DNA of 32,000 nt, taken from Halomicronema hongdechloris C2206 (lineage in GTDB: Bacteria; Cyanobacteriota; Cyanobacteriia; Phormidesmidales; Phormidesmidaceae). The stretch covers positions 4,050,001-4,082,000 of the forward strand of contig NZ_CP021983.2 in the NCBI RefSeq assembly GCF_002075285.3, in the 5' to 3' direction. Made by a program: the position numbers and the translations under genes. The notes under the pieces were generated by a model. It made no database searches. It saw only the letters and a list, made by a program, of their open reading frames with translations, and had not been told where the DNA came from. Below, piece by piece: positions 1,907 to 18,395 of the stretch. Every line of letters begins with the position of its first letter. Position 1 is the stretch's first letter.

Positions 1907-1940
1907 GCAGCTTTAACATCTACGCAGCTTTAACATCTAC
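1907..1940. repeat. Perfect 17-bp tandem duplication GCAGCTTTAACATCTAC x2 at the 3' end of IS630 orfB
   Basis: Read directly: 1907-1923 is identical to 1924-1940. Either copy yields the same protein end ...YVDVKAA*. Confidence 0.9.
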
Positions 1941-2573
1941 ATAGTGAGTGGAGTGGCCATTTTTCTCCCCCCTGTCTTCTAAGCCAATAACAACGTTGTA
2001 CGCCAGTTCTGCTTCACACTCAAACATCTGTCCAACCAGTTCATCGCGCTTGAGGTGCTGCCATTCCCCTTCAATGGGATTCATCTCTGAGCAATACGAG
2101 GGCAAGAAAAAGATATAGAGTCCCTGAGCTTCCCATTCAGCCCAGTGCTGTCGGGTCACCTGACTGGTGTGAATGGAGCCATTATCTTGCACAATCACGC
2201 GAATACGCCCGGTCTTGTCATACTCCGTCGCCGCATCTTTAGCCTGACCGGTGAGCATCGCGATATAGTCCTCACTCTTGAAGGAGCCAAACACGAGCCC
2301 ATAAATAAAGGTGATAAAGGGCTGCCATAGCCCCAAAATACTCAGCCGTCGTCCCCGCTTTTTCCTCTGTTCCTGGCGGTTTTGCTGACCGCGAAAATAG
2401 TAGCTGTAGCTGACGGGGCTCCACTGGCAGCAGCCTGACTCATCCAGATAGAACAAGTCAATGTCACCTGCTGCGGCAGCCAACTCCAGCATATCCAAGT
2501 CGGCTTGCTTGAGCGCTCGTTGGAGCGGGTCCTGACGCTCACGATGACTGTGGCGAGTGCGCTTCCAGATCAC
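1920..2573 (-). CDS. IS630-family transposase orfB (DDE catalytic part), probably fused to orfA by a -1 frameshift
   Basis: The ORF contains ...LFYLDESGC..., ...VIVQDNGSIHTS... and ...FFLPSYCSEMNPIEGEWQHLK.... This is the DD(34/35)E-type layout typical of IS630/Tc1. It has no plausible start of its own. Confidence 0.7.
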   Translation of the reverse strand: MIWKRTRHSHRERQDPLQRALKQADLDMLELAAAAGDIDLFYLDESGCCQWSPVSYSYYFRGQQNRQEQRKKRGRRLSILGLWQPFITFIYGLVFGSFKSEDYIAMLTGQAKDAATEYDKTGRIRVIVQDNGSIHTSQVTRQHWAEWEAQGLYIFFLPSYCSEMNPIEGEWQHLKRDELVGQMFECEAELAYNVVIGLEDRGEKNGHSTHYVDVKAA

Positions 2574-2980
2574 CCCCTTTTTTTGAGCACCTGCCGTAGA
2601 TAGTCAGGACTCAGATGAATGCGGCGCTCTTGTTCTAATTTTTCGGCCAATTGTGGACTCGTATACGTGCGTTCGTCCACTTGCAAGACTTGCTCGATGT
2701 ACACCATGTCTGCCTCTTGCCATCGGCGACGTTTTCCCCGACCGGGGGCTTCCCATAACCCACCTAATCCACCTGCCTGCCAGCGGTGTAGCGTTTTGCG
2801 AACCATCTCCACGTGCCAATTGAAAAAGGCTGCAATCATCTCAACATAGTCTCCCCGAGCATTCATGCGCATCACTTGGGCTCGGTCTTTGACCCGTTGA
2901 GGGACAGTCGTCGCTCGTTGCAGTTCTCGCAAGGTGCGATCTTCCTCGGGTGTCAGAAAGACCCGTAGTTGCATTCCCAT
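2570..2980 (-). CDS. IS630-family transposase orfA (helix-turn-helix part)
   Basis: ORF MGMQLRVFLTPEEDRTLRELQRATTVPQRVKDRAQVMRMNARGDY...LRQVLKKRG. It ends inside an A7G run that overlaps orfB. The start could be 2980 or 2974. Confidence 0.7.
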   Translation of the reverse strand: MGMQLRVFLTPEEDRTLRELQRATTVPQRVKDRAQVMRMNARGDYVEMIAAFFNWHVEMVRKTLHRWQAGGLGGLWEAPGRGKRRRWQEADMVYIEQVLQVDERTYTSPQLAEKLEQERRIHLSPDYLRQVLKKRG

Positions 2981-3440
2981 GACGCCCCCACCTGTCAAGC
3001 TACAAGTTGCAAACCTAAGCATACCTCGATGTTTTTAGCACGGGCTACTTATCAGAAACGCGCCTATCAATTGGAGTTCACAATACGGACGTATGAGTAT
3101 GTGCCGGACTAGTTTTGTCAGTCAACCAGGACCTGGAGTCATATTAGATTGATTCAATCTATCTATTGTACACTTTTGGGTACTATACAAGATTTGTACA
3201 TGGTTATTAGTATAAGAAGGTAATTAATTGTTCTTCTACTTTGCAGCAAAAAGCTCTTTTAGCTTTTTAAACCGATTGACTACTTACGTTCACTGCTGTT
3301 TGCATTTACATAAGAGGCAAGCTGTATTTATCTGTTTTTTGAAATTTTGTTACTTGAGTAGAATTGAGAATTATCGTAATAGTATTTTGAGCTAAACAAT
3401 TTTTAGTGTCGTTTTTTGTAATATGTGATTGGAAAAGAAT

Positions 3441-4280
3441 ATGAGCCAAATAAAAAAACTAAATCGATATAAGCAGAAGGTAGCATTGGGATTTGATCTA
3501 GCAGCTGCTGACTATGAGTCTCATTCCTTACGATATCTGCCAGACTGTGCAAACCATTTAGTTAAATTGGCAAAAATGCAAAGCGGGCAAAAGATTTTGG
3601 ATGTTGCAACTGGTACAGGCTTTGCGGCCCTTGCTGCGGCAAAATCTGTTGGGTCTACAGGTAATGTAATAGGGATTGACATTGCTAAAAATATGCTGGA
3701 AAAGTCGCAAGAAAATATAGAAGCTATGGGCTTTAAAAATGTAGAAATGCATGTGGGAGATGCTGAATCCCTAAATTTTAAAAATAATGAATTTGACGGG
3801 GTAATCTGCGCTTCTGGTATTTTTTTTCTTTCTGATGTAGTTGCTGCACTCCAAGAATGGAGACGGGTCACTAAAGAAGGAGGGTTTGTATCTTTTTCGA
3901 GTTTCGATCAAATAGCCTTTAAGCCCATGTTAGAACTGTTATTAACACGCCTTCAAAAACACTGTGTTTCAATGACAATGCCAGTTCCTGCCAAACAGAT
4001 TGATTCAACTGAGAAGTGTTATGACTCACTAAACAGTGCAGGGTTTGAAAAGATTGAAATACAAACTCAACAGCTTGGCTATTATCTCAATAACGTATAT
4101 GAGTGGTGGAACATAGTGTGGAACAGCGGTTTTAGATTCTATGTTTCACAACTGCCACCTGAAAATCTAGAGTTATTTAAAAAAGAACACCTTGCAGAAA
4201 TAGAAACTTATACCACAAAGCAAGGGATTTGGTTTGATGTTGAGACCATATTTGCTAAGGGTTTTAAAGAGACAGTATAG
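3441..4280 (+). CDS. Class I SAM-dependent methyltransferase (Methyltransf_11/UbiE-like)
   Basis: Motif I is ILDVATGTGFAALAAA, with an acidic post-I GIDIA and motif II/III FDGVICASGIFFL. The ATG at 3441 is preferred over the TTG at 3429. The gene is AT-rich. Confidence 0.8.
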   Translation: MSQIKKLNRYKQKVALGFDLAAADYESHSLRYLPDCANHLVKLAKMQSGQKILDVATGTGFAALAAAKSVGSTGNVIGIDIAKNMLEKSQENIEAMGFKNVEMHVGDAESLNFKNNEFDGVICASGIFFLSDVVAALQEWRRVTKEGGFVSFSSFDQIAFKPMLELLLTRLQKHCVSMTMPVPAKQIDSTEKCYDSLNSAGFEKIEIQTQQLGYYLNNVYEWWNIVWNSGFRFYVSQLPPENLELFKKEHLAEIETYTTKQGIWFDVETIFAKGFKETV

Positions 4281-4460
4281 CAATCATACAGAAAACCGTT
4301 CTCTAATTTTGTTTTGTTGTTTATTATCGATGTAAAAATTTAATACTGAAAATTAGGATCAATTAACTGATTTAGCTTATTCTGAAGCTTTTAAATTTTG
4401 GACATACAACATACGAAGAACCGACGAAGTTCTGACTTTTAAAAACTTTCAACGAAACAG

Positions 4461-5780
4461 ATGTATAATAGTTTGCACCAGCTTCGCGAAAAAATTTTGC
4501 ACTCTACTTGCAAAATAGGAGTTGTTGGTCTGGGATATGTTGGATTACCATTTGCTGTTGAAAAAGCAAAAGTAGGGTTTTCGGTGATTGGGGTGGACCG
4601 AAATTCAAAACGGGTAGCATGGGTCAACCAAGCCCATAACTACATTAAAGATGTCAAAGACTATGAATTAAAGCGCGTTGTAGAAAGTGGCTATTTTAAA
4701 GCAGAGGAAAGCTTTGGGCGTTTGTCTGAAATGGATGTCATCGTTATTTGTGTGCCGACCCCTCTTACTGAAGATTTAACCCCAGATATCAGCTATATCG
4801 AGGAAGTTACTCAAGAAATTGCCAAGCGATTGCGTCCTGGACAACTTATTTCCTTAGAATCAACTACTTATCCTGGCACAACAGATGAAGTAATATGCCC
4901 TATTCTTGAGCGCTGTAGTGGGCTTAAGCGAGGGAAAGATTTCTTCTTAGCCTATTCTCCCGAAAGAATCGATCCAGGTAATCAGCGCTACACAACAAAA
5001 AACATCAATAAAGTGGTAAGTGCTTCTGATGTTCACTCTCTAGAAGTTGCAACATTGTTCTACCAACAAACTATCGAAACTATTACCACCATCAGCAGTT
5101 CCAAAGTAGCAGAACTTTCGAAAATTTTCGAAAACACCTTTCGAGCAGTAAATATTGCTCTGGTGAATGAACTTGCTATGCTATGTGATCGTTTAGATAT
5201 TAATGTCTGGGAAGTGATAGATACCGCCAACACAAAACCATTTGGAATTATGCCTTTCTATCCGGGTCCTGGGGTAGGTGGTCACTGCATTCCAATTGAT
5301 CCCCATTATTTAAAATGGAAAGCTAAAGATGTCAACTTCAATGCCCGCTTCATTAACTTCGCCAGCGAAATTAATCGTCAGATGCCTTCTTTTGTCAAAA
5401 ATAAGGCATTTTCAATCCTTGATCGATTAGGAATAGCACCTTCCGTGTCCCGCTGTTTTATTTTGGGGGTGACCTACAAAAAAGACCTGCCTGACTTGAG
5501 GGAATCTCCCGCGATTTCAATCATCAAATTACTTCTAGAAGAGAAGGTTGTGGTGTCTTACTATGACCCATATATTCCTAAATTAGAAGTTGGAGAACAT
5601 TCCTTCAAAAGCACTTCTTTGACGGCAGAAAACCTCTCCTTTATGAATCTGGTCATCATCACCACTGACCATAGCCAGGTGGACTATGAAGCAGTGGTAA
5701 CCCATGCCCCTTATGTACTAGACACACGAGGGATAACTCGTCATCTAAATTGCGCTGGCGAGAAGGTAACAATGTTATGA
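4461..5780 (+). CDS. Nucleotide-sugar 6-dehydrogenase (UDP-glucose/GDP-mannose dehydrogenase family, UDP-HexNAc dehydrogenase-like)
   Basis: N-terminal Rossmann motif IGVVGLGYVGLP; ICVPTP; catalytic-Cys motif GPGVGGHCIPIDP; C-terminal UDP-binding-type domain (GVTYKKDLPDLRESPA). Confidence 0.85.
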   Translation: MYNSLHQLREKILHSTCKIGVVGLGYVGLPFAVEKAKVGFSVIGVDRNSKRVAWVNQAHNYIKDVKDYELKRVVESGYFKAEESFGRLSEMDVIVICVPTPLTEDLTPDISYIEEVTQEIAKRLRPGQLISLESTTYPGTTDEVICPILERCSGLKRGKDFFLAYSPERIDPGNQRYTTKNINKVVSASDVHSLEVATLFYQQTIETITTISSSKVAELSKIFENTFRAVNIALVNELAMLCDRLDINVWEVIDTANTKPFGIMPFYPGPGVGGHCIPIDPHYLKWKAKDVNFNARFINFASEINRQMPSFVKNKAFSILDRLGIAPSVSRCFILGVTYKKDLPDLRESPAISIIKLLLEEKVVVSYYDPYIPKLEVGEHSFKSTSLTAENLSFMNLVIITTDHSQVDYEAVVTHAPYVLDTRGITRHLNCAGEKVTML

Positions 5781-6883
5781 AACCAATCGTTTCTACTATG
5801 AATAGAGCTGTTAACCTCATGGATTTTGAGTCCATTGCACGAGAATGTTTATCGCAGCCTATCTGGAATTACTTCGCCAGCGGCGCTAACGACGAAATCA
5901 CACTGCGTAACAACCGTGAGGCATTTTCTCGTATTAATTTATACTACAAAGTTCTAGTGGATGTAAACGAGTGTTCCTTACAGACGCAGATTCTGGGTCA
6001 AAAAAATTCTATACCGATACTTATAGCACCTTTGGCGTTTCATAAACTAGCTCATCCCGATGGCGAGATGGCTACTGCTCGTGCTGCTGGCGCACAGGGT
6101 ACAATCATGATTCTAAGTACCATGAGCACGACACCAGTTGAAGAAGTAGTTGCTAATGCATCAGGCCCTATCTGGTTTCAGCTTTACATTTACAGAGACC
6201 GTGCGGTTACTAAAGCACTCGTCAAACGAGTAGAAGCAGCTGGTTGCTCAGCATTGGTATTGACTGTCGATGCTCCAGTAATGGGGCATCGCGAACGTGA
6301 TATTCGCAGCGGAGTAGATTTATTTGCTGAACTTCAACTAGAAAATGTGTTCGCCATGGACGTGTACAAAACTTCCGAAAATACGCGCAACAAAAACATG
6401 GCAGAACATTTTGCGTCACTTTTCGACCCTTCAATTACTTGGAAGGATATCGAGTGGTTGCGTTCGCTCACCAAGCTACCAGTTATCGTTAAGGGTATCA
6501 TTCGCGCCGATGATGCACAACACGCTGTGTGTAGTGGCGCCAGCGGTATTATTGTTTCCAACCACGGAGGGCGTCAACTCGATACAGCACCAGCTACTAT
6601 TGACGCACTGTCGCCTATCGTCGAATCAGTAGGCAAAAGTGCAGACATCTTCCTCGATGGTGGTATCTTACGAGGTACCGATGTTATCAAAGCATTAGCA
6701 CTTGGTGCTAATGCTGTCCTTATTGGTAGACCTGTACTCTGGGGATTAGCAGTAGGTGGCACTGAGGGGGTAGAGCACATATTCAAAATCCTACGCAATG
6801 AAGTCAATTTGGCTATGGCTTTGTGTGGTTGCCCGACAATAGCCGACATCAAATATGACCTGTTACGACCAAAAAATCGCTAG
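5777..6883 (+). CDS. FMN-dependent alpha-hydroxy-acid oxidase/dehydrogenase (glycolate / lactate / hydroxymandelate oxidase family)
   Basis: The family signature SNHGGRQLD is present. Also seen: AFSRI...LGQKNSIPILIAPLAFHKLAHPDGEMATARAA, LTVDAPVMGHRERD and DGGILRGTDVIKALALGA. The ATG at 5777 overlaps the upstream TGA (ATGA), which suggests translational coupling. Confidence 0.85.
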   Translation: MKPIVSTMNRAVNLMDFESIARECLSQPIWNYFASGANDEITLRNNREAFSRINLYYKVLVDVNECSLQTQILGQKNSIPILIAPLAFHKLAHPDGEMATARAAGAQGTIMILSTMSTTPVEEVVANASGPIWFQLYIYRDRAVTKALVKRVEAAGCSALVLTVDAPVMGHRERDIRSGVDLFAELQLENVFAMDVYKTSENTRNKNMAEHFASLFDPSITWKDIEWLRSLTKLPVIVKGIIRADDAQHAVCSGASGIIVSNHGGRQLDTAPATIDALSPIVESVGKSADIFLDGGILRGTDVIKALALGANAVLIGRPVLWGLAVGGTEGVEHIFKILRNEVNLAMALCGCPTIADIKYDLLRPKNR

Positions 6884-7016
6884 TAGCTACTAGTTAAGTA
6901 ATAGCTTTCATCAGAAAGAGGTTTTGAGCTGAATAGACAGCGTCTTCAGTATAAATTATTATTGTAACCTTCTTTGGTAATCCGAAAAATTCATTACGTA
7001 ATAGAATATTGTTCAT

Positions 7017-7178
7017 ATGATAGAACATACTCAACGACGAGACGGTGAGCTAATAGATCTTGGAATAGGACGACCTGATTTTGCGCTTCTTCCTCTTGCA
7101 GAACTCCGAAAGGCTTCTGCACACCGATTTTCTCTAATAGATACAAGCTGTCTTCAGTACTCGCCAGAAGCGGGTCGT
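7017..7178 (+). pseudogene. Class I/II PLP aminotransferase, N-terminal 54 codons (gene split by an IS)
   Basis: MIEHTQRRDGELIDLGIGRPDFALLPLAELRKA...LQYSPEAGR. The reading frame then runs into the IS inverted repeat. Confidence 0.7.
7170..7178. repeat. Target-site duplication GCGGGTCGT (left copy)
   Basis: An identical 9-mer sits at 8344-8352, immediately outside the IS inverted repeats. Confidence 0.85.
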
Positions 7179-8343
7179 GGGAGCATCTCATTTTTGCGAG
7201 AACCCAGCATCTGTGCTGAGATGAAAGGGTAGTCTCTACCCCAAAAGCTCTTGTCCCCCGAAGACCAAGCCGCCTTAGCCCAGCATAGCCGCGAGATTGC
7301 CAAGATTCTGCATCGCAATAGCCCTCCTGAAGCCGTTGACACACTTGAAGGCATTGAAACGACGGTGCGGCAGCAGATGCTGGAGCACGTCAGTCCCGAA
7401 GTGGGAATTTTTTTGTCGAAGCGTGCACCCAAACCCAACGGGGACGCCCCCGGCAGCTAAAAAGTGTTCTGGGGACCCTCCCGATTCGGGAACAGCAAGC
7501 CCAGCGGTTGGGCCTCGAACCCCACGGTCGTCTCAGCCCGCTCTTTGAGAAATGTGCGTTGCGGGTTGCGGCCTGCCAAAGCTATGGGAAAGGCGAAACC
7601 GACGTGTCCGTTTTAACGGGGATGTCGTTGAGTCATTCAACGCTGCAACGCCTCGTGCAACGCCAACGTGAGACCCCACCGGAGGCGAAGCAGACGGTCA
7701 CCGAGATCAGTGTCGATGGCGGTAAAGTGCGCCTGCGGCATCCGGAAAAAGGCGAACCCAGTTACTGGAAAGAATACAAGAGTGCTCGGGTCGAGAATCT
7801 GTACTATGGGGCGGCGTTTCAGGCAAATGACTGGCTGCAAGACTGGCTAAATAGCCAACCGTTAGCGAACCCCATCATCTGCCTTGGCGATGGGCATCGG
7901 GGCGTCTGGGCGGTGTTTCGTCCCATCGCCACCGTGGAAACCCGTTTAGAAATTCTCGATTGGTACCACTTGGTCGAAAACCTCTATGGAGTTGGGGGCT
8001 CATTAAAACGGCTGAAACAAGCCAAAGCTCTGTTATGGGAAGGGCGGGTTGATGAAACCCAGGCGTTATTTACCGACTGCGCTCTGGAGCAAGCCCGGCG
8101 ATTCTGTGATTACTTGGAGCGACATCGTCACCGAATTGTGAATTACGGCTATTTTCAAGCTGAACAAATCTGTTCGATTGGCTCAGGTGCAGTTGAGTCA
8201 GCCATCAAGCAGATTGACCATCGCATGAAACTCCCAGGCGCTCAATGGGTGCCCGACAATGTTCAGCAAGCCTTGCAGGTGCGATGTGCCTATCTGAATA
8301 GAGCCTACGATTGTTGATGTTTTTGCAACTTTGAGATGCTCCC
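7179..8343 (+). mobile_element. 1165-bp GC-rich insertion sequence (ISKra4-family-like) interrupting the aminotransferase gene
   Basis: Inverted repeats: left GGGAGCATCTCATTTTTGCGAGAAC; reverse complement of the right end GGGAGCATCTCAAAGTTGCAAAAAC (12 perfect terminal bp). There is a 9-bp direct repeat, an internal transposase, and GC-rich composition unlike the flanking island. The family call is from memory (GGG ends, 9-bp duplication, C-terminal SGAVESAIKQI...PGAQW motif). Confidence 0.7.
7251..8317 (+). pseudogene. IS transposase, read in two frames (frameshift near 7436-7450)
   Basis: Frame A is 7251-7460 (SPEDQAALAQHSREIAKILH...GIFLSKRAPKPNG). Frame B, from about 7442, runs GRPRQLKSVLGTL...LGDGHRGVWAVF...DWYHLVENLY...IGSGAVESAIKQIDHRMKLPGAQW...*. 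Whether the shift is a mutation or programmed cannot be decided from the sequence. Confidence 0.6.
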
Positions 8344-8352
8344 GCGGGTCGT
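8344..8352. repeat. Target-site duplication GCGGGTCGT (right copy)
   Basis: Identical to 7170-7178. Confidence 0.85.
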
Positions 8353-9324
8353 CCTTCACTACGCGGGCATCTCGCAGACTTTCTCACCCGCCATTACGGT
8401 TCTGTGGTACGTCCTGAGAGACTTTTTTTGACTGCTGGTGCATCACATGGACTTGACCTCATTTCAGGATGCTTTGCGCAACCTGGAGATACGGTATTTG
8501 TTGAGGCTCCAACATACTTCTTAGCACTCAAAATACTCCAAGGGAGGAACTTACGCATTGTATCGGTTCCAACTGATTCTGATGGACTCGATGTAGTTGC
8601 TTTAGAACATTTGCTGGAGATGGAGAAACCAGCATTTCTCTACACAATTCCTGTACATCACAATCCAACAAGTGTCACGCTATCAGTGGTAAGGCGAAGG
8701 AAGTTAATAGAGTTGGCTGAAAAACACAAATTTTTCATCATAGCCGACGAAGTTTATCAACTTCTTAACTATAATGGATATACTCCGAGCCGATTGGCTG
8801 CTTTCGATGATAGCAGAGTCATATCTTTAGGGTCATTCTCAAAGATACTTGCTCCTGGGTTACGGCTTGCTTGGATTGAGACAGAACCGAAGCATTTTTC
8901 TGTACTTGGCCGATGCGGCGTTATCAAAAGTGGTGGTGGCGTCAATCCATTTACTTCAGCGATTGTCGAAAGCGCGATTACACTTGGGCTACAAGATTCT
9001 TATCTAGAGCGCGTACGTAAGGTTTATAGCCAACGGTGTGCTCATATGATCCAAGTCCTTGATCATGTACTTCCTAAAGTAGTAGGTTTTACAAAACCGA
9101 AAGGAGGGTTCTTCGTGTGGCTAAAACTTCCGCAATATATTGATAGTAAGGAGTTACTCGCAGAGGCTCAGATACTCAAAATTGGGTTTCGTCCTGGTTC
9201 CCTCTTCTCGCAAGAAGAAGGTTTCACAAATTTCTTGCGGATTTGTTTCGCTTATTACAATGAAGCTGAAAGCGAGTGGGCCTGCAAGCAACTCGGACGT
9301 TTATTTTCTAGTCATTTACAATAA
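8353..9324 (+). pseudogene. Class I/II PLP aminotransferase, C-terminal 323 codons
   Basis: In frame from the duplication: (AGR)PSLRGHLADFLTRHYGSVVRPERLFLTAGASHGLDL..., HHNPTS, IADEVYQ, and the PLP-lysine motif SFSKILAPGLRLAW. The family looks like aromatic / 2-aminoadipate / kynurenine aminotransferases. Confidence 0.8.
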
Positions 9325-9358
9325 TTCCCACCTTTACTATCGACTTAGTTAATATCAA

Positions 9359-11578
9359 ATGAAAAATTTATTGCCCGTTGAAACATTACTTGCTGAACTT
9401 GGCGCTTTTGGCAAACTGCCCAAAAATAATGTTTTTCATAGAGAATGGACTCAAGAAAACCAGGAGCAAGACTTCAAGACTGCATTGAACAGTCCACTTT
9501 TCGCTCTTCACAAAACTTCTGATGTTAACGACATCGAATCTATCCAAATTGACGACGCACGGCGAGTTTTACGTTTGAAACGGCAGATAGCGTCTTGGAT
9601 CGTAGAGTACGCTGAACTAATCGGTGGAGTCGAGTGGGCTCGCTTATCGCATCAGAGCGAAATCCAAGAAAAGGCTGAACTAATCGCGACCCAATCGCTC
9701 GAAACGAAAGCTGAGATTCTGAGACTGCAAAGAAGAATTGTCAAACGATTTATTGATGGTAGAAGAAACTACTTTGAGCGAGAACAGTCAGCATCCTTCG
9801 ATGAAATCGAAGCAATGGCTAAGGAAAAACGCGAAATTTTCATTATCATAAAATTTATGGACGAAGCACCTCATATAAGGGCTACTTTGAAATCCTTAGT
9901 GAATCAAAAGTCCATAGACATGGAACGTGTCGTAATCGTCGCTGTCGATAATAATTCGACAGATGGCTCAGATAAAATTGTCAAGCTTGTTATTGCCGAA
10001 AACACAAGCAGAGCACGCATAATATATACGAATCAACCGATATCTGGAGGTGGGAGTGCTGCTCGATTTGGTGTAGATCGCATCATTTCAACTATCTATG
10101 AAATGTGCCTCCACGATAATGATTGGGAACGGTTGGAGCGAGCTATAATCGCTGTGTCTGACGGTGATACGGTGTATCATCCTCAGCTACTGGCAGATAA
10201 CGTTGCTATCTTAAATACAGATTCGACTGTGGATGGCGTTATGCCGTTCTTGACCTACAAGTATACGGCTGCTTTACGACTCTTTGCTAAATACACATCC
10301 AGGTTTTCTGAAGACTTGCGACCTCACGCCAATTGCGCCAAAGCTGTGGCTGTCCCTGTTGATCTTTCTACAATAGAAGCTTACATCCAGATACCGCGAC
10401 ACCAGAGGAGAGTGATAGATGATGAAACAATAGAATTGATAATTATTGACCGAGAAGGAGTTGAAACAATTCGAATCGTTAAACTGAATAATCGCGACGC
10501 TCTGGGACGCAAATTTGCCGCTCTCATAGACAATGAAGGACACCTCGCTTACGTCTTGTCGAACCGCACAATCGTTCTTGACGAAGCTCCAGTATCAGGG
10601 ACAGATGCCGCACTTGTTTATTTGGAAAACGATAGCGTGAAGGAAGATGAAAAGTGGCGCTGGCACGCGGTAATCGGTCACGATTTATTTCTAAGTTGGG
10701 CATTTGAAGAAATGGGGCTACCAGAAGAGAGCATTTTCCCAGATACTAGCGATGCATTAAAGATGTTTCGCGTTTGGAGTTTTGCAGTCGGCGGTCAACA
10801 CCAACTAAAGAAACCTGATTTGAATATCGTTACTGGTACGGACTATCAATCGGGTCGAGTCTTGCAGGCAGTTGGTAATGTAATTCGCCTTGGACCAGCT
10901 CATGCATACTCCGAGACCGAGATTGATCGATTGATTAAGATGATCCGTAATTTTGCAAAGGGGCAAAGTGTTTTCTACGGCGAAACCAGAAGCTCGAATG
11001 TTGAAAGAGCAAGTGGGCTCTATTTGCACATGACCCGCATTCAAAATGCGGTCGAAAATGAAGTACGCAACTTCTCTGAAGACTTCTTCAGAGAGGTTGT
11101 TTTCCCAGAAAGGATTATTTTTCCCCTGCGATGGATACTACAGAATGCTGTACGTTTCTATGCACACAAGGAACCATGCGCAAGAGATATTGTAGAACAA
11201 CGAGTGCTAAATACTATATTTTCTCCAGAAACCGTTGTACAAATTAAACAGAAATGGATTACAGAGACAACCATTGCAACGATTAGAAGTGTGGAGTACA
11301 TAAACAAACAGAAGCAAGCTGAGAAAACTGCAGAGGGTATTATAAAAGAGCATTATCGAGAAATAATGTCCTTTTATAAAAAGACGCTACAATCTTTTTT
11401 CGATGCCTATCAGATAGAGCCTCAGCATTATTCTTGGTTGCTCGAAGGCGTAGAGCAGTCGAGAAATGCCCTAGTTGAAGATCTCCCCCGTGTCCATCCT
11501 TCGGCAGTCTGGCAAGGCAAGGAATTTGTTATCGATAACGCTAGAGGGCAGGTCTTAAAATTTTATTCTTCTAGTTAG
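9359..11578 (+). CDS. Large (739 aa) uncharacterised protein with an embedded GT-A (family-2-like) glycosyltransferase core
   Basis: An uninterrupted AT-rich ORF. Residues about 170-290 read IFIIIKFMDEAPHIRATLKSLVNQ...VAVDNNSTDGSDKIV...AVSDGDTVYHP, which fits the GT2 layout (NxxxxL..SL.NQ, DxxSxDGS, DxD). The roughly 170-aa charged/coiled N-terminus and roughly 440-aa C-terminus match nothing I recognise. Confidence 0.7.
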   Translation: MKNLLPVETLLAELGAFGKLPKNNVFHREWTQENQEQDFKTALNSPLFALHKTSDVNDIESIQIDDARRVLRLKRQIASWIVEYAELIGGVEWARLSHQSEIQEKAELIATQSLETKAEILRLQRRIVKRFIDGRRNYFEREQSASFDEIEAMAKEKREIFIIIKFMDEAPHIRATLKSLVNQKSIDMERVVIVAVDNNSTDGSDKIVKLVIAENTSRARIIYTNQPISGGGSAARFGVDRIISTIYEMCLHDNDWERLERAIIAVSDGDTVYHPQLLADNVAILNTDSTVDGVMPFLTYKYTAALRLFAKYTSRFSEDLRPHANCAKAVAVPVDLSTIEAYIQIPRHQRRVIDDETIELIIIDREGVETIRIVKLNNRDALGRKFAALIDNEGHLAYVLSNRTIVLDEAPVSGTDAALVYLENDSVKEDEKWRWHAVIGHDLFLSWAFEEMGLPEESIFPDTSDALKMFRVWSFAVGGQHQLKKPDLNIVTGTDYQSGRVLQAVGNVIRLGPAHAYSETEIDRLIKMIRNFAKGQSVFYGETRSSNVERASGLYLHMTRIQNAVENEVRNFSEDFFREVVFPERIIFPLRWILQNAVRFYAHKEPCARDIVEQRVLNTIFSPETVVQIKQKWITETTIATIRSVEYINKQKQAEKTAEGIIKEHYREIMSFYKKTLQSFFDAYQIEPQHYSWLLEGVEQSRNALVEDLPRVHPSAVWQGKEFVIDNARGQVLKFYSSS

Positions 11579-11674
11579 AGGTCGAGCCAGAGGTCGCCTT
11601 CTGATAGGAGAGCGTCGCTAAATAAGGTAGTGAAACAAAAATCTGCGGTAGATCTAGCGAAGCTGTCATGAAAG

Positions 11675-11713
11675 GCAATCTAACTCGAAATCATTGTTCT
11701 GCAAGGGTTTCAA
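11675..11713 (+). repeat. Copy A of a ~40-bp dispersed repeat (GCAATCTAACTCGAAATCATT...AGGGTTTCAA)
   Basis: It aligns by eye with 14254-14293 (GCAATCTGAACTTGAAATCATT...TAGGTTTTAG) in the same orientation. The two copies bracket the amidinotransferase relic and trpBA. Confidence 0.6.
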
Positions 11714-11876
11714 AATTGGTTTTAAGCGATCGCCAGAGAAGTTTATTTTTGCAATTTTTGGATAGTTTATGAAAAATTGTGATATTTTTTCGAGAACTAA
11801 AATCAATAAAAAATATATACTGCAATAGTCTTAGAGATTATAGATCGAAAGCTATTTTCATCATCTTAAACACTAA

Positions 11877-12065
11877 AAGCTGCAATATTTTCTACAATTG
11901 CCCCTCATGATAACACTGGCTAGTTTTATCCCAATTAAAGAACTGGAACGATATAAAATTGATGTTATTCCCTTGAGTTTACGCCACGCTAGGACTCTCG
12001 GCGGAAGATTTTACTGCGTCACATTAGATGTGAGAAGAAAAGGCTCACTCGAATCCTATGTCTGA
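11877..12065 (+). pseudogene. Amidinotransferase (AGAT / CyrA / SxtG-type), C-terminal relic only
   Basis: The open frame after TAA 11874-11876 reads [62 protein letters not shown]. The end resembles the conserved amidinotransferase C-terminus, which I recall as ...[22 protein letters not shown]. The upstream ~300 codons are absent. Confidence 0.6.
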
Positions 12066-12193
12066 TTATCTCTTTTTTGTCATAGTAGAATCAAATTTTC
12101 TCTGAGTGACAAAAGCGTCTCACTCTTGAGAAAAACAGTCTATATTTATGCAAAGTTTAGCATCCATAACATAAATAGAAATTTCAAATAATC

Positions 12194-13396
12194 ATGACAG
12201 AACAACAATTCAACAAATTACCCGACCAAAATGGCTATTTTGGTAAATATGGAGGGCGTTTTGTACCAGATACCTTGATGGAACCACTGATACAACTTGA
12301 AAAAAACTATTATTCTTTAAAGGGTGATGAGAATTTTCAAAGAGATCTATTACATTTTCAAAAAACCTTTATAGGGAGACCAACTCCTCTATATTTCGCA
12401 GAAAATCTTTCACGGAAAGTAGGTGGCGCGAAAATATATTTCAAGAGAGAAGACTTAGCACATACAGGTGCACACAAAATTAATAATGCCATTGGTCAGA
12501 TTCTTCTTGCCAAATATATGGGCAAAAAGCGAATTGTTGCTGAAACGGGCGCAGGGCAACATGGCGTAGCAACAGCGGCAGCTTCTTCAGTACTCGTTTT
12601 AGACTGCTTAGTCTACATGGGTGAAAAAGATATGGAAAGACAACAGCCCAATGTTGAACGTATGCGATTGATGGGAGCAGAGGTTCAGGCTGTTGAATCA
12701 GGCTCGCGGACTTTAAAGGATGCAGTGAGTGAAGCAATGCGCGATTGGGTAACTAACATTGATGATACTTATTATTTATTAGGATCGTCATTAGGACCAC
12801 ACCCCTATCCCTTAATTGTCCGAGATTTCCAAAAAGTTATAGGTATAGAGGCTAGGAAACAAATTATGGAGGTGGAGACGCAAATGCCAGCCGAAGTTAT
12901 CGCCTGTTTGGGCGGAGGAAGTAATGCTATTGGTATTTTTTATGGATTTATGGAAGACGATGTAAAGCTGATTGGGATTGAGGCAGGAGGGTCTGATATA
13001 TCTCCTGGTCAGCATGCTGCTAGATTTTCTGGTGGACGTATTGGTATTTTTCAAGGAATGAAGACATTCGTCTTGCAGGATCAAGAAGGACAAATTGAAT
13101 TAACGTCAAGTATTTCGGCAGGTTTAGATTATGCAGGAGTTGGTCCTGAGCATGCTAACCTCTTGGATAAAGGACGTGCAAATTATCTCTATGTAAATAA
13201 TGTAGATGCTATGGAAGCATTAAAAATACTTTGTAAAGAAGAGGGCATTATTCCTGCTCTCGAATCAGCGCACGCAATAGCTTATGTACTTAAAAAAGCT
13301 AAAGAATATGATAGGTCGCAAAGTCTTATTGTAAATCTTTCAGGTAGAGGCGATAAAGATGTGAGTATAATCCAAGACTGGAAATTTAAAAAATGA
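12194..13396 (+). CDS. trpB: Tryptophan synthase beta subunit
   Basis: [12 protein letters not shown], the PLP-lysine motif [27 protein letters not shown] and [11 protein letters not shown]. It is full length at 400 aa. Confidence 0.95.
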
Positions 13397-14190
13397 GAAC
13401 TATTCGTGATTCTATTAAAGAAAAAAATAGAGATGGCTATACTGCTTTAGTACCGTATATTCTGCTTGCAGATCCTGATTTTGAAACGACAAAGCAAGTA
13501 ATTTTCGCTTTGTCTCGTACAGGCTGTACAGCAATTGAACTTGGACTTCCCTTCACCGATCCAATAGCTGATGGGCCAGTAATTCAGAAAGCCACAGAGC
13601 GAGCTCTTAACAAAGATATTTCGCTGAAATTAATTTTTCAATTTATTTCAGATTTGAGGAAGGAAGGGTTAAAAATCCCTATTGCAATATATACATACAG
13701 TAACTTGGTTTATAATATTGGGTACGATAGTTTTTGTAAGGAAGCAATAAAAGCGGGGATACAAGGAGTCCTAATTGTTGATCTTCCTCCAGAAGAGGCT
13801 CATGAGTTTATGAATGTAAATTCTCAAGATTCTTTGGAAACTATATTTCTTTGTTCTGCCACTACAAGCGAAGAACGTCTCCCTAAAATCAATAGTGCAT
13901 CAACAGGATTTACCTATTATGTTGCTCAAAAGGGAGTTACTGGAATGCGGGAGTCTTTACCAGACGGATTAACTGAAAAACTTACTAAATTACGTGAATA
14001 TATTACTACTCCGCTTGCCGTTGGTTTTGGTATATCAAAACCTAAACACGCAAAGGCTCTTGCCCCTTATGCAGATGCTATCGTTATAGGAAGTGCGTAT
14101 GTTAATATGTTTGAATCATATCAAGGACGTGAACTTGTTGAAAAGATAGAGTCCTTTACAACTTCTATTGTATCTGAACTTAAAAAATAA
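13393..14190 (+). CDS. trpA: Tryptophan synthase alpha subunit
   Basis: [17 protein letters not shown] (catalytic Glu/Asp region), YYV...GVTG and GFGIS. The ATG overlaps the trpB stop (ATGA). Confidence 0.9.
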
Positions 14191-14253
14191 ACGTTGTTAA
14201 TAGTGGATTTACAGCTGCGACATGGTGAAAAACTAGGGTTGGTGTCACCAGAC

Positions 14254-14801: not shown

Positions 14802-16556
14802 GAGCCGACATTCCGCAGGTTGACAGGGAATAAAAGATGTGGAGTGGTCTAGGCTAGAAACCGTTGCTTCTGGCGGTGTCATCCTCCCTTGCAGATTGAA
14901 AATTTAGACCATCTGGGTTTAGTGGCCGGTCTTATCGATGAACTTGGCCTGGTTGAACTGAGCGATGACCTGATTGAGCCCCATTGCTTAGAGCACGTCA
15001 GTGCTGGCCAAGTGGTGAAAGCGATGATTTTGAACGCCCTGGGGTTTCTCAGTGCCCCGTTGTACCTGTTCAGCGAGTTCTTCGAAAGTAAAGCCGTGTC
15101 TCATTTACTGGGAGAGGGGGTTGAGGCCCATCACTTGAATGATGACCGCTTGGGGCGTGTCTTGGATGACCTCTAGGAGGCGGGCACCACCTCATTTTTT
15201 ATGACCGTGGCGCTACAGGCGGTCAACCGATTTGAGATTGACATTCAGCAGCGCCATCTCGATGCCACCTCTATCGCGGTGGAGGGTGAGTATCAGATCG
15301 CCTCCGAGGTCGAAGCGGAAGCCACGCCTGAGTCAGAGCCCCTAAGTGAGCCCTCAGCAGAACCGACCCCGATTCGACTCTGCCGAGGGTACTCCCGAGA
15401 TCACCGCCCGGATTTGAAACAGTTTTTGATGACCCTGGTGTGTGCCGCTGACGGCGGCGTGCCCTTGTGGTTGAAGGTGGCCAGTGGCAATGAGCACGAC
15501 AGTCAGCAGTTCGCGAGTGTAGTGACGGAATTTAGCCAACAGTGGACCAGCGACGGCATCGTTGTCATGGATGCGGCCTTCTATAATGAAGCGAATCTGC
15601 AGCAGCTGGGCTCTATGGGGTGGCTGTCGCGGGTCCCCCTAACGCTGAAAGCCGCTCAAGACCTGGTACATCGCGACGTCACCACACTGAGTGAAGTCCC
15701 CTGCAGCCTGAAGGATTACCGACTGTGGGAGGTGGAGTCGACCTATGGTGGGGTGCCTCAGCGCTGGATTCTGGTCGAAAGCCAGACCCGCAAAGCCGAT
15801 GCCGCCCTCTGGCAACCGGAACTGGAGAAGCTAGAACGCAGGCTCAATCACCAATTGAAATCGCTCAGCCAGCAGACCTTTGCCTGTAAACCCGATGCCT
15901 TAGAGGCCTTGATGCAGTTTCAAGACCGTCTGGAGGTGCATCAGCTCACTCAGGTTTCGGTTCAGACCGTGCGGGCGAAACGCGCCCCCGGTCGTCCGGC
16001 CAAATCCGCCGAGGCCACCCCCGTTCAGGGGTATCGTCTCCAGGCCACCTTGGAGCGCACCACCACCGCCGAAGAGACCTTTAGCCGACAGCGCAGCCGC
16101 TTCATTCTCGCCACGAATCAGCTGGATAATACCCTCTGGCCCGCCGAGAAACTCCTGAGCGAATACAAAGGGCAACAGACCGTGGAGCGAGGCTTTCGCT
16201 TCCTCAAAGACCCCCTCTTCTTTGCCAGTAGCGTCTTTGTCAAAAAGTCCCAGCGAGTTGAAGCCTTGGCCCTGATCATGGCCCTCACCTTGATGGTCTA
16301 TACGCTCGCCGAACGGAAGACTGGACGCCCAGCACCAAACGGTGCGGAACCAACGCAAACAGCCCACCGCTAAGCCCACCTTTCGCTGGATTATGCAGAA
16401 GTTTCAAGGCATTCACTGGGTCAAGCTGGAGGGGCAACGGCAGATTAGCAATCTCAATGATGAGCGGCGACTGATTATTCACCTCTTGGGTCCACCCGTT
16501 GAGCGCTATTACTATGCCCCTGGTTAATTATTTGTCAACCTGCGGAATGTAGGCTC
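14802..16556 (+). mobile_element. IS1634-family (IS4 superfamily) insertion sequence, 24-bp terminal inverted repeats
   Basis: Left end GAGCCGACATTCCGCAGGTTGACA; reverse complement of the right end GAGCCTACATTCCGCAGGTTGACA (23/24). No flanking direct repeat was recognised. Confidence 0.7.
14889..16527 (+). pseudogene. IS1634-family transposase, inactivated (in-frame TAG 15174-15176, frameshift near 16320-16345)
   Basis: IENLDHLGLVAGLIDELGL..., CRGYSRDHRPDLKQFLMTLV (a hallmark of the family), and VVMDAAFYNE. The C-terminus continues in another frame (RNQRKQPTAKPTFRWIMQKFQGIHWV...). Confidence 0.7.
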
Positions 16557-17474: not shown

Positions 17475-18395
17475 ATGATGCTAGCAGGGGTCAGCTTACC
17501 ATTAGCCCTCATGCCCCACGGGTCCTGTTTTTTCTGGGATCCTTGGCTTACGGCCTTGCATGTCGTGGCAGATGCTGGAGTGGCCTTAGCCTATTTCTCG
17601 ATTCCGCTGCTGTTATTTCTCTATAGAGACCGGGCAGCAGCAACGACACAGCCCTTGTTGCTCTTGTTTGCGGCCTTCATTTTGAGTTGTGGCCTAGGCC
17701 ATGGCTTTAGAATCTGGAATATCTGGCATGCCCACTATTGGCTAGAAGGGAGCTGGATGATGGTCACGGCTATGATCAGCCTCTATACGGCCTGGGAGTT
17801 GAAGCAGGTGATGCCGCTGTTGTTGTCGACCCAGAAAGATTTGCTCGATACTCAACAGTTGTTAGAAAAAGATGACCTGACGGGAGTAGCCAATCGTCGT
17901 GGCTTGGAGACGGCGTTTCAACGGTTAGTATTGCAATCGGTTGAGCCAGAGTTAGATCATGCACTACTACTCTTGGATTTGGATGATTTCAAACAGGTGA
18001 ATGATACCTATGGCCATGGGGTTGGAGATCTCTTGCTGCGGTTGGTGGCGGAAAAATTATGCGATCGCACCCGTTCCCTCGACACAGTGGTGCGCCTAGG
18101 AGGGGATGAATTTGCCATTCTGCTGGCGGGCTGTTCCCTAGCTGGGGCAAATTTAATTGCCCAGGATATTCGACGGGCCATGACCAGCATTCGATTGCCG
18201 ATGCAGGAGCAAGAGCCGTCTCAGCGATTCCAGGTAACAGCCAGTATTGGCATTGCTCCCATCCAGCCAGTTATGCCCCTGGGGCAATGCTATGACCAAG
18301 CAGACCAAGCGCTCTACCAGGCAAAACGCAGGGGCAAAAACCAGATCGCAATAGTCTCTTGCCAGACCCAGGCACCCCAGGTACAGGGTCTATGA
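17475..18395 (+). CDS. Membrane-bound diguanylate cyclase: ethylene-binding-domain-like 3-TM N-terminus fused to a GGDEF domain
   Basis: The N-terminus has ADAGVALAYFSIPLLLFLY and FAAFILSCGLGHGFRIWNIWHAHYW. I recall the plant ETR1 / Synechocystis SynEtr1 equivalents as AYFSIP and CGxxH. The C-terminus has LTGVANRRG, DLDDFKQVNDTYGH and RLGGDEFAILL, with an RSLD I-site five residues upstream. Confidence 0.75.
   Translation: MMLAGVSLPLALMPHGSCFFWDPWLTALHVVADAGVALAYFSIPLLLFLYRDRAAATTQPLLLLFAAFILSCGLGHGFRIWNIWHAHYWLEGSWMMVTAMISLYTAWELKQVMPLLLSTQKDLLDTQQLLEKDDLTGVANRRGLETAFQRLVLQSVEPELDHALLLLDLDDFKQVNDTYGHGVGDLLLRLVAEKLCDRTRSLDTVVRLGGDEFAILLAGCSLAGANLIAQDIRRAMTSIRLPMQEQEPSQRFQVTASIGIAPIQPVMPLGQCYDQADQALYQAKRRGKNQIAIVSCQTQAPQVQGL

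Follow-up and report, generated by a model that had tools for sequence, protein, structure and literature searches.

This study concerns a gene that lies at positions 9359 to 11578 on the forward strand of a 32-kb stretch of the Halomicronema hongdechloris C2206 genome, hereafter called the window. The gene is complete, with an ATG start and a product of 739 amino acids (aa) followed by a stop, and the listing of open reading frames (ORFs) bears out a preliminary description of this DNA in that it is the longest ORF of the whole window. Upstream of it on the same strand are genes for a nucleotide-sugar dehydrogenase, an alpha-hydroxy-acid oxidase dependent on flavin mononucleotide (FMN) and an aminotransferase that is split by an insertion sequence (IS). 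The 739-aa protein belongs to a small, uncharacterised family in which a heavily elaborated glycosyltransferase of the GT-A fold defines an orphan biosynthetic cassette. We call this family, as defined here by proteins of ~670–740 aa joined in a single alignment, the long GT-A family.

The window protein is 100% identical to XM38_038500 of H. hongdechloris C2206 (ASC72890.1 / WP_080805844.1), which the databases label as 'glycosyltransferase family A protein' or 'hypothetical protein' and nothing more specific. Full-length homologues are 42–76% identical to it. Compared with the closest of these (76% aa identity, from a locus designated L026), the ratio of nonsynonymous to synonymous substitution rates (dN/dS) is 0.106. 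The deposited identical protein, the full-length homologues and this dN/dS value together establish that 9359–11578 is a real gene, and one under purifying selection.

Sequence and predicted structure of the long GT-A protein

A Pfam search with the 739-aa protein gave a single match above cut-off, PF00535 (Glycos_transf_2), at aa 162–288 (profile positions 2–106 of 168), with E 8.9e-9 and 35.9 bits where the gathering score is 23.3. PF13641 also matches below threshold, and NCBIfam returned only glycosyltransferase family 2 (GT2) equivalogs, far below threshold. Homologues of the window protein carry PF00535 and/or PF13641. The GT2-like motifs are located at aa 161–183 (FIIIKFMDEAPHIRATLKSLVNQ), aa 196–205 (VDNNSTDGSD) and aa 267–275 (SDGDTVYHP). 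When fragments 1–155, 300–739 and 559–739 were scanned alone, Pfam gave zero matches, and searches of PDB sequences, whether by phmmer with the single protein or with a 38-sequence profile, matched no solved structure beyond the GT-A core. No transmembrane segments were found in the protein (the highest 19-residue Kyte-Doolittle mean is 0.96), and it is predicted to be soluble.

We aligned the window protein with 37 homologues from four phyla, and this alignment of 38 sequences (A1) is the basis of all conservation figures given here. The alignment is collinear from end to end and contains more than 100 invariant positions, all of which are carried by the window protein. The blocks EKWRWHxxIGHD, PDTSDALK, GGQHQL, TGTDYQSGR, ETExDRLxKM and FPERxxFPLRW are all present in it. 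An AlphaFold2 model computed on this alignment is one compact body with a predicted local distance difference test score (pLDDT) of 91.4 and a predicted template modelling score (pTM) of 0.92. When the full model was compared with the PDB by Foldseek, only GT2 enzymes were retrieved (probability 1.0, E 2e-5 to 7e-4), namely hyaluronan synthase, TarS/TarP, K4CP, heparosan synthase, SpsA, AvpGT and chitin synthase. Superposition on GT2 structures covers ~150 columns at 3–5 Å, and the whole-chain TM-score is ~0.2 (0.23 for hyaluronan synthase).

The chain can be divided into five regions. The N-terminal helical region (aa 1–155; 9359..9823, forward strand as for all parts of the gene) is family-specific, has no Pfam match and shows the weakest conservation of the five (0.36), with a conserved SPLxxLxxxSDVN motif inside it. 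AlphaFold2 predicts a long helical hairpin here (helices at 61–89 and 99–138). At the tip of the hairpin, aa 84–109 (9608..9685) form an insert that is a gap in more than 70% of the aligned homologues and that only the window protein and a few close relatives possess; pLDDT falls to 65 at aa 91–100. This region is followed by the nucleotide-binding half of the GT-A fold (aa 156–310; 9824..10288; conservation 0.70), which contains KFMDE, VDNNSTDGS and DGD, is the part recognised by PF00535 and Foldseek, and has predicted sheet strands at 160–166, 191–197, 220–225 and 263–268. Its DxD motif, D268-G269-D270 (10160..10168), is the predicted metal/diphosphate ligand; D268, G269, D270 and T271 are invariant in the 38 sequences. 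D197 and D202 of VDNNSTDGS are invariant or at least 90% conserved, and K165, D168, E169, H172, D197, N198, S200 and D202 are invariant or nearly so across the four phyla. Invariance at these nucleotide- and metal-binding positions favours a catalytically competent enzyme over the scaffold or assembly role that the preliminary description had raised as a possibility.

The remaining three regions lie C-terminal to the recognisable core. A beta-rich inserted subdomain (aa 311–410; 10289..10588) is variable in sequence (conservation 0.47) and is modelled with six strands between 350 and 407. The next region, aa 411–560 (10589..11038), is the most conserved of the protein (0.78), with many invariant polar residues distributed over EKWRWHxxIGHD, PDTSDALK, GGQHQL, TGTDYQSGR, ETEIDRLIKM, FYGETR and GLYLHMTRIQ; AlphaFold2 gives a mixed region at aa 416–560. 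The last region (aa 561–739; 11039..11575; conservation 0.55; FPERxxFPLRWxxQN ... EFVIDxxRGQV) is modelled as a helical bundle (helices at 559–695) with a short terminal beta-hairpin (strands at 723–735), with pLDDT mostly above 90. Residues 300–739 modelled alone fold confidently for the most part, yet aa 466–520 drop to pLDDT 35–55. This collapse without the N-terminal half suggests that aa 466–520 pack against that half in the predicted structure. Foldseek found no significant neighbour for the 300–739 model in the PDB (best E 0.18) or in BFVD (best E 0.24). More than 70% of the chain, the best-conserved block included, is without any relative in sequence or structure beyond the family.

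Taken together, the profile match, the fold, the DxD motif and an acidic nucleotide-binding residue after beta2 all class the protein as a predicted GT2-like GT-A. The solved GT2 enzymes SpsA, TarP/TarS, K4CP, PmHS2 and Chlorella-virus hyaluronan synthase share with it the Rossmann-like half and the DxD that ends beta4; the acidic residue after beta2 sits in VDNNSTDGS in the window protein and in a DDGS-type sequence in the solved enzymes. In contrast, nothing in the solved enzymes matches the acceptor half of the window protein, its 100-residue beta insert, its 155-residue N-terminus or its ~180-residue C-terminus. The processive membrane synthases of GT2 (hyaluronan, cellulose, chitin) have a transmembrane channel together with the motifs D, DxD, (T/G)ED and QxxRW in that order, and the window protein has neither this channel nor this motif order. 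EKWRW at aa 431–435 superficially resembles QxxRW, but it comes before the sole motif of ED/SD type, and P0097, a 537-aa protein from a metagenomic sister family, does not conserve it.

P0097 also bears on how the chain is organised. By hhalign it matches query aa 63–689 with probability 100, E 8.5e-47 and 29% identity, and it shares with the long GT-A proteins the N-terminal helices, DGD, (D/E)E(K/Q)W, PDT, TE(I/V)DR and FPER. It lacks the beta-rich insert (aa ~311–415) and the last ~50 residues, and it replaces several invariants of the long family (WRWH by WKYL, GHD by GYD and GGQHQL by GGIIQP). Since P0097 lacks aa ~311–415 and aligns on either side of them, aa 311–410 can be read as an insertion into the GT-A domain and aa 411–560 as its acceptor half. 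Pfam and PDB alignments of the long GT-A end just past the DxD region. When the insert is discounted, the invariant PDTSD (D462/D465) falls ~90 residues past the DxD, which by spacing alone is where a GT-A catalytic base usually lies. In light of the model, we think that aa 411–560 probably complete the GT-A catalytic domain as the acceptor/catalytic half of one active site and are not a separate domain. The helical N-terminus, the beta-rich insert and the ~330-residue C-terminal elaboration are predicted to surround the nucleotide-sugar core as a single globular enzyme. The gene for P0097 (L030 311–1924) has neighbours of other kinds: a helix-turn-helix (HTH) regulator, proteins of unknown function and a phosphohexomutase.

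Most of what the preliminary description said of the protein holds. All three motifs that it quoted are present, and the GT2-like resemblance is significant both by sequence, where it is above the Pfam cut-off, and by structure, where Foldseek gives probability 1.0. The coiled-coil-like character that it gave to the N-terminus corresponds to the predicted helical hairpin, the absence of obvious transmembrane segments and the solubility agree with the hydropathy maximum of 0.96, and the ~440 C-terminal residues in which it could place no motif are unmatched in Pfam, the PDB and BFVD. It had left room for a characterised family over the whole length; our searches of Pfam, NCBIfam, PDB sequences and Foldseek reach only the GT-A core. 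Likewise, the Foldseek comparisons that it proposed for the full model and for residues 300–739 recover the core in the first case and no significant neighbour in the second. Where it went astray is in the layout. A GT-A core 'sandwiched' in a multi-domain protein is not what the model gives, which is one compact body whose most conserved block, aa 411–560, loses confidence once the N-terminal half is taken away.

Family spread and the surrounding cassette

An exhaustive phmmer search of 1.84 billion cluster representatives returned 36 matches at E <= 1e-3 and 23 at E <= 1e-10. The strong matches are all members of the long GT-A family or fragments of members, and profile and phmmer searches for the C-terminal region in other architectures gave only the family, its fragments and the sister protein P0097. 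The taxonomic survey suggested in the preliminary description shows that the family occurs in four phyla. It is represented in Cyanobacteria by Halomicronema, in Acidobacteriota by Ca. Angelobacter, and in Actinomycetota by Micromonospora, Dactylosporangium, Plantactinospora, Nonomuraea, Streptomyces, Actinoallomurus, Myceligenerans and Acidimicrobiales. Among Pseudomonadota it is found in Alphaproteobacteria (Azospirillum), Betaproteobacteria (Burkholderia gladioli, B. oklahomensis, Paraburkholderia, Azohydromonas, Chitiniphilus, Zoogloeaceae) and Gammaproteobacteria (Halomonas/Vreelandella, Marinobacter, Endozoicomonas, Cellvibrio, Granulosicoccaceae). This patchy distribution suggests that the family spread horizontally.

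The companion check of the neighbourhoods revealed recurrent partners. We counted genes in 26 non-redundant loci by seed-based tblastn within 8 kb of the glycosyltransferase (GT) gene, with Pfam-annotated gene calls in support. An FMN-dependent alpha-hydroxy-acid oxidase (PF01070) is present in 21 of the 26 loci, and a further, pseudogenised copy is present at L022. An Abhydrolase_3/BD-FAE esterase gene, which typically starts 12–95 nt past the GT stop, accompanies the GT in 19 loci, and a nucleotide-sugar 6-dehydrogenase in 13. Class I aminotransferases were found in ten loci and class IV aminotransferases in six, so that 16 of the 26 have an aminotransferase of either class. Amidinotransferases occur in nine loci, BenE transporters in six, LysE transporters in four, and an actinobacterial trio of AMP-binding enzyme, carrier protein and LCM-methyltransferase in six to seven. 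The two transporters are of amino-acid/aromatic-acid types. Genes for Wzx/Wzy, polysaccharide export by ATP-binding cassette (ABC) transporters or lipid carriers were found in none of the 26. The long GT-A is the anchor gene of a horizontally mobile small-molecule cassette that occurs across phyla, and not part of a polysaccharide locus. The preliminary description had seen a small-molecule-like operon in the window; this is right for the cassette as it recurs in the 26 loci, and wrong for the window copy if taken to mean an intact operon, as that copy is a decayed remnant.

Three types of cassette can be told apart. Type A contains a class I aminotransferase with or without an amidinotransferase, and is found in the window, in L026 and in Burkholderia, Dactylosporangium, Nonomuraea, Vreelandella and Angelobacter. 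Type B contains BenE, GT, esterase, class IV aminotransferase, a DAC-like protein and the oxidase, and type C contains an AMP-binding enzyme, a carrier protein (PCP), LCM, the oxidase, GT and dehydrogenase. An intact block of eight genes is present in B. gladioli at L001 5958–14878. The minimal intact cassette is the cyanobacterial one at L026 2085–8730, which consists of dehydrogenase, FMN oxidase, aminotransferase, GT and LysE and in which a gene for a separate aglycone is missing.

The closest solved structures of the oxidase are L-lactate oxidase, glycolate oxidase and HAO1, and by homology it is predicted to be a bona fide alpha-hydroxy-acid oxidase. Relatives of the class I aminotransferase are KAT-II-like enzymes, LysN, MppQ and alanine:glyoxylate aminotransferase, which are alpha-keto-acid enzymes and not of the DegT sugar type. 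The amidinotransferase is a homologue of L-arginine:glycine amidinotransferase (AGAT; E 3e-76 with human AGAT, 1JDX) and also of SxtG, HsvA and StrB1, and it retains the catalytic His-Cys motif. In three proteins of ~1,070 aa (P0034, P0042 at L004 10001–13219, and P0044) this amidinotransferase naturally follows the GT, at its C-terminus, in a single fused chain. Elsewhere it is encoded by a separate neighbouring gene, and it is 66–77% identical across phyla.

Eight loci additionally encode a protein of 130–160 aa without Pfam assignment (L001 7139–7624, L021 1329–1745, L018 8271–8666 and five others). Its invariant HDGFH and GSRxxTAxF resemble HDGA and GTRHRAA of diadenylate-cyclase (DAC) domains, and it matches PF02457 weakly (E 0.003). 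At L022 8020–14218, from an uncultured Paraburkholderia ('Vsou symbiont' metagenome-assembled genome), the oxidase, the esterase and the dehydrogenase each match only in several separate tblastn pieces, which suggests that these three are pseudogenised; no such break-up is apparent in the GT, the aminotransferase or the amidinotransferase, which look intact.

The Halomicronema copy

In the window the cassette begins with a nucleotide-sugar 6-dehydrogenase gene (4461..5780, forward strand) of the type acting on uridine diphosphate N-acetylhexosamine (UDP-HexNAc). It matches TIGR03026 with E 1e-122, and its best specific models are UDP-ManNAc dehydrogenase and the TviB UDP-GlcNAc 6-dehydrogenase, all below the equivalog cut-offs. 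It is followed on the same strand by the FMN-dependent alpha-hydroxy-acid oxidase/dehydrogenase gene (5750..6883; PF01070, E 2e-139) and by two parts of a class I aminotransferase gene. The 5' fragment (7017..7178, forward strand, codons ~1–54, within ORF 7017–7232) corresponds to aa 16–67 of the intact L026 aminotransferase, which match window 7032–7187 by tblastn. The 3' part (8344..9324, forward strand) matches PF00155 from profile position 65, is KAT-II/LysN/MppQ-like, and corresponds to aa 62–384 of the L026 protein (window 8344–9312, 71% identity).

The element that splits the aminotransferase gene is an IS of 1,165 bp with an ISKra4-family transposase remnant (7179..8343, forward strand); its ORF 7508–8317 matches the ISKra4 transposase model NF033572 of NCBIfam with E 5e-72. 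Reading the sequence directly, we found that its ends are inverted repeats of 12 bp without mismatch (GGGAGCATCTCA / TGAGATGCTCCC) and that a target-site duplication of 9 bp, likewise perfect, flanks it at 7170–7178 and 8344–8352 (GCGGGTCGT). The perfect state of both the repeats and the duplication indicates that the insertion is recent.

Window 4513–11571 is collinear with L026 2137–8021 at ~75% nucleotide identity through dehydrogenase, oxidase, aminotransferase and GT. L026 then continues with LysE; in the window, no genes for LysE or another exporter, an esterase or an amidinotransferase were detected. As the IS splits the aminotransferase, and exporter and esterase genes were not detected, the Halomicronema cassette is a decayed remnant and its pathway very probably inactive there, though the GT ORF is intact.

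The cassette block lies in an island of low G+C content (~3000–14200; 37–45% against ~55% for the genome). To the left of the island is an IS630-type transposase pair (HTH and DDE_3 ORFs; 1920–3022, reverse strand), and to the right is an IS1634-family transposase remnant that is truncated N-terminally (15201–16373, forward strand). Transposases in these positions fit a segment that was acquired as a mobile, composite-like unit.

Several further genes lie within or next to the island. Directly after the GT, window 12194–14190 encodes trpB and trpA with equivalog-level matches and a G+C fraction of 0.37–0.39 against ~0.55 for the host. The pair is absent from all 25 related loci and may be either a second, horizontally acquired copy or cassette-linked. 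At the left edge, a UbiE/ArsM-like S-adenosylmethionine-dependent methyltransferase gene (3429–4280) has no counterpart in L026 or the other cassettes, which makes its link to the pathway doubtful. To the right of the island, at the G+C content of the host, are two further genes on the reverse strand (17475–18395 and 18406–20499); one encodes a diguanylate cyclase (GGDEF) whose N-terminal domain is ethylene-receptor-like (PF25487), and the other a protein of 697 aa in which a Na+/H+ exchanger is joined to two universal-stress-protein domains.

Possible functions of the long GT-A enzyme

The fold, motifs, conservation, family size, neighbourhoods, fusions and IS described above are results of the tools used; from them we infer the identity of the donor, each chemical step and the product. 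We tentatively favour a reading, quite possible if still short of probable, in which the long GT-A processes a UDP-HexNAc-uronic acid that is later oxidised, transaminated and sometimes amidinated to give an exported sugar amino acid. In this scheme the adjacent UDP-HexNAc-type 6-dehydrogenase would first form the UDP-HexNAc-uronic acid. The GT-A enzyme would then bind it at the DxD/Mn2+ site and strip off UDP, with water or else a transient or intramolecular group as the acceptor. A lactone might be opened, or an acetyl group taken off, by the Abhydrolase_3 esterase, which is often coupled to the GT in translation. With C5-OH and C6-COOH, the freed uronic acid would be an alpha-hydroxy acid that the FMN-dependent oxidase could convert to an alpha-keto acid, and the class I or class IV aminotransferase would turn this into an alpha-amino acid. 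Finally, in some cassettes only, the AGAT-type amidinotransferase would convert the amine to a guanidine, and the product would leave the cell through LysE or BenE.

Three lines of argument lead us to this scheme. Because the minimal cassette of L026 has no gene for a separate aglycone, one nucleotide-sugar-derived scaffold for all the enzymes is the most economical arrangement. The oxidase needs a pathway-specific alpha-hydroxy acid, for which the C5-OH/C6-COOH of a freed uronic acid would be the only evident source. In addition, two unrelated aminotransferase classes adjoin the same oxidase, which supports a hydroxy to keto to amino logic.

A precedent by analogy comes from Man18/Cgc10 of manlipyrrolamide and congocidine biosynthesis, a GT-like hydrolase of nucleoside diphosphate (NDP) sugars that frees a modified sugar, which becomes a non-sugar carboxylate building block (PMC12983305). 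The likeness is a functional one, in that a GT-like protein stands beside a nucleotide-sugar dehydrogenase and an aminotransferase in a small-molecule cluster and may feed sugar into non-sugar chemistry. Man18 was assigned by its authors to GT1/GT4, with a GT-B fold, and the pyrrolamide pathway uses a DegT sugar-type aminotransferase, a dehydratase resembling glycoside hydrolases (GH) and NAD or xanthine dehydrogenases (PMC12983305). Set against this published description, the window protein differs in being a predicted GT-A, and its cassette in having class I/IV aminotransferases, an FMN oxidase and no GH-like gene. Homology to the pyrrolamide (congocidine) pathway was accordingly ruled out, since its GT-like enzyme is GT-B, its aminotransferase DegT-type and its oxidases different.

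A number of points weigh against release of a sugar acid by the long GT-A. The dehydrogenase lies within 8 kb of the GT in just 13 of the 26 loci, so the donor may be supplied by housekeeping enzymes or may not be the same in all cassettes. In a pyranosyl uronic acid the C5-OH is not free, and the scheme therefore needs release plus ring-opening, or a furanose/lactone form. A highly conserved enzyme of ~690 aa seems excessive for plain hydrolysis, the Man18 precedent is GT-B and non-homologous, and the fusion of GT and amidinotransferase is accounted for at least equally well by a GT whose acceptor is the amidinotransferase product. The catalytic base was not located, D462/D465 being only candidates picked by spacing in the insert-free P0097, and searches of the full-text literature turned up no work on the long GT-A protein, its family or the cassette. 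Much more is claimed if the scheme is extended to a new GT-A-derived enzyme that hands HexNAc-uronic acid to the FMN oxidase, aminotransferase and amidinotransferase, with a new-fold C-terminus that creates the chemistry and with new exported sugar alpha-amino, iminosugar or guanidino sugar acids as its products. The producers would then be Burkholderia gladioli and B. oklahomensis, together with many Micromonosporaceae, with halophilic gammaproteobacteria and with some cyanobacteria. Taken jointly, we regard these claims as rather unlikely to hold.

The long GT-A might instead be a conventional Leloir glycosyltransferase, an explanation that we consider possible though doubtful, and nearly as likely as the release of a sugar acid. 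Here its acceptor would be an amino or guanidino acid, O- or N-glycosylated (perhaps at the guanidine) with HexNAc-uronic acid from the product of the adjacent dehydrogenase, and the large C-terminal elaboration would be the acceptor-binding site. The oxidase, the aminotransferase and, where present, the amidinotransferase would build the aglycone, the esterase would trim an acetyl group and LysE or BenE would export the glycoconjugate. The nucleotide-sugar-binding motifs of a working GT-A are all intact, as this explanation expects, the numerous Arg, His, Asp and Trp that are invariant within aa 411–600 would suit a small charged acceptor, and an AGAT-type amidinotransferase that is adjacent or fused C-terminally fits an acceptor made by that enzyme. 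The minimal cassettes of L026 and the window, on the other hand, contain nothing that would supply a hydroxy acid specific to the pathway. The enzymes closest to the oxidase use glycolate or lactate, and the corresponding amino products, glycine and alanine, need no dedicated supply. Moreover, the partnership of GT, esterase and oxidase persists in cassettes that have no aminotransferase or amidinotransferase at all.

GT-A enzymes that act on small hydroxy acids include mannosylglycerate synthase (GT78) and glucosyl-3-phosphoglycerate synthase (GT81), and StnG of streptothricin biosynthesis is reportedly a guanidino-N-glycosyltransferase. As soluble nucleotide-sugar transferases that use small charged amino- or hydroxy-acid acceptors in cytoplasmic small-molecule pathways, they would be leads for a Leloir function, but they are ~300–450 aa long and lack the N- and C-terminal elaborations of the long GT-A. 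Neither the PDB-sequence and Foldseek searches nor the literature provided a sequence or structural link of the long GT-A to GT78, GT81 or StnG. The literature on StnG, kifunensine, saskemycin and Burkholderia amidinotransferase clusters likewise gave no usable link to the cassette.

Three other pathways were tried against the gene content and rejected. Mycofactocin biosynthesis (MftD/MftF) does not apply, as the oxidase scores 261 bits against an MftD cut-off of 471 and there are no genes for MftA, MftB or MftC. A kynurenine pathway, with the KAT-II-like aminotransferase, Abhydrolase_3 as formamidase and trpBA nearby, would need a dioxygenase that is not there, and trpBA is absent from all related loci. 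A supply route from glycolate through glyoxylate and glycine to guanidinoacetate fits the relatives of the oxidase, the aminotransferase and AGAT; it is unlikely, as glycine needs no dedicated supply.

A bifunctional enzyme is in our view improbable. In that case aa 411–739 would form a second, non-GT active site, such as a metal-dependent hydrolase, lyase or isomerase acting on a sugar acid, and the GT-A core would merely bind or deliver the nucleotide sugar. It is true that the highest conservation falls outside the recognisable GT core, that invariant His, Asp, Glu and Arg are dense there (H436, H441, D442, H481, H557, E521, D523 and several Arg) and that aa 411–739 found no structural or sequence neighbour in our searches. 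However, AlphaFold2 predicts a single body rather than two lobes, no search recognised a metal-hydrolase motif or fold, and aa 466–520 need the N-terminal half to fold confidently, which is what one would expect of the acceptor half of one GT-A active site. Finally, that the protein is an envelope or exopolysaccharide GT2 of the hyaluronan, chitin or teichoic-acid type, next to unrelated metabolic genes by chance, is hardly credible, for although hyaluronan synthase, TarS/TarP, K4CP and chitin synthase head the Foldseek matches and a uronic-acid-forming dehydrogenase is nearby, those matches are confined to the ~150-residue core, transmembrane helices and the canonical TED...QxxRW arrangement (in A1) are missing, and the 26 loci offer amino-acid-type enzymes with LysE/BenE in place of polysaccharide-export and lipid-carrier genes.

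If the long GT-A does release a sugar acid for oxidation and transamination, the family would mark an orphan biosynthetic cassette without a known product, and the enzyme set would point to polar, amino-acid-like sugar derivatives. Iminosugar and guanidino-sugar compounds are often inhibitors of glycosidases or transporters and are easily missed by standard extraction. Holders of the cassette include well-studied producers (Burkholderia gladioli, B. oklahomensis, Micromonospora, Nonomuraea and Dactylosporangium) as well as plant- and marine-associated proteobacteria. The long GT-A also illustrates the extent to which the GT-A scaffold can be elaborated, and it is a good target for structural work and for annotation in CAZy and Pfam. 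For the biology of Halomicronema the significance is low, because its copy of the cassette is a recently inactivated, decaying passenger on an IS-bounded island; for the discovery of enzymes and natural products in organisms with intact cassettes, it is high.

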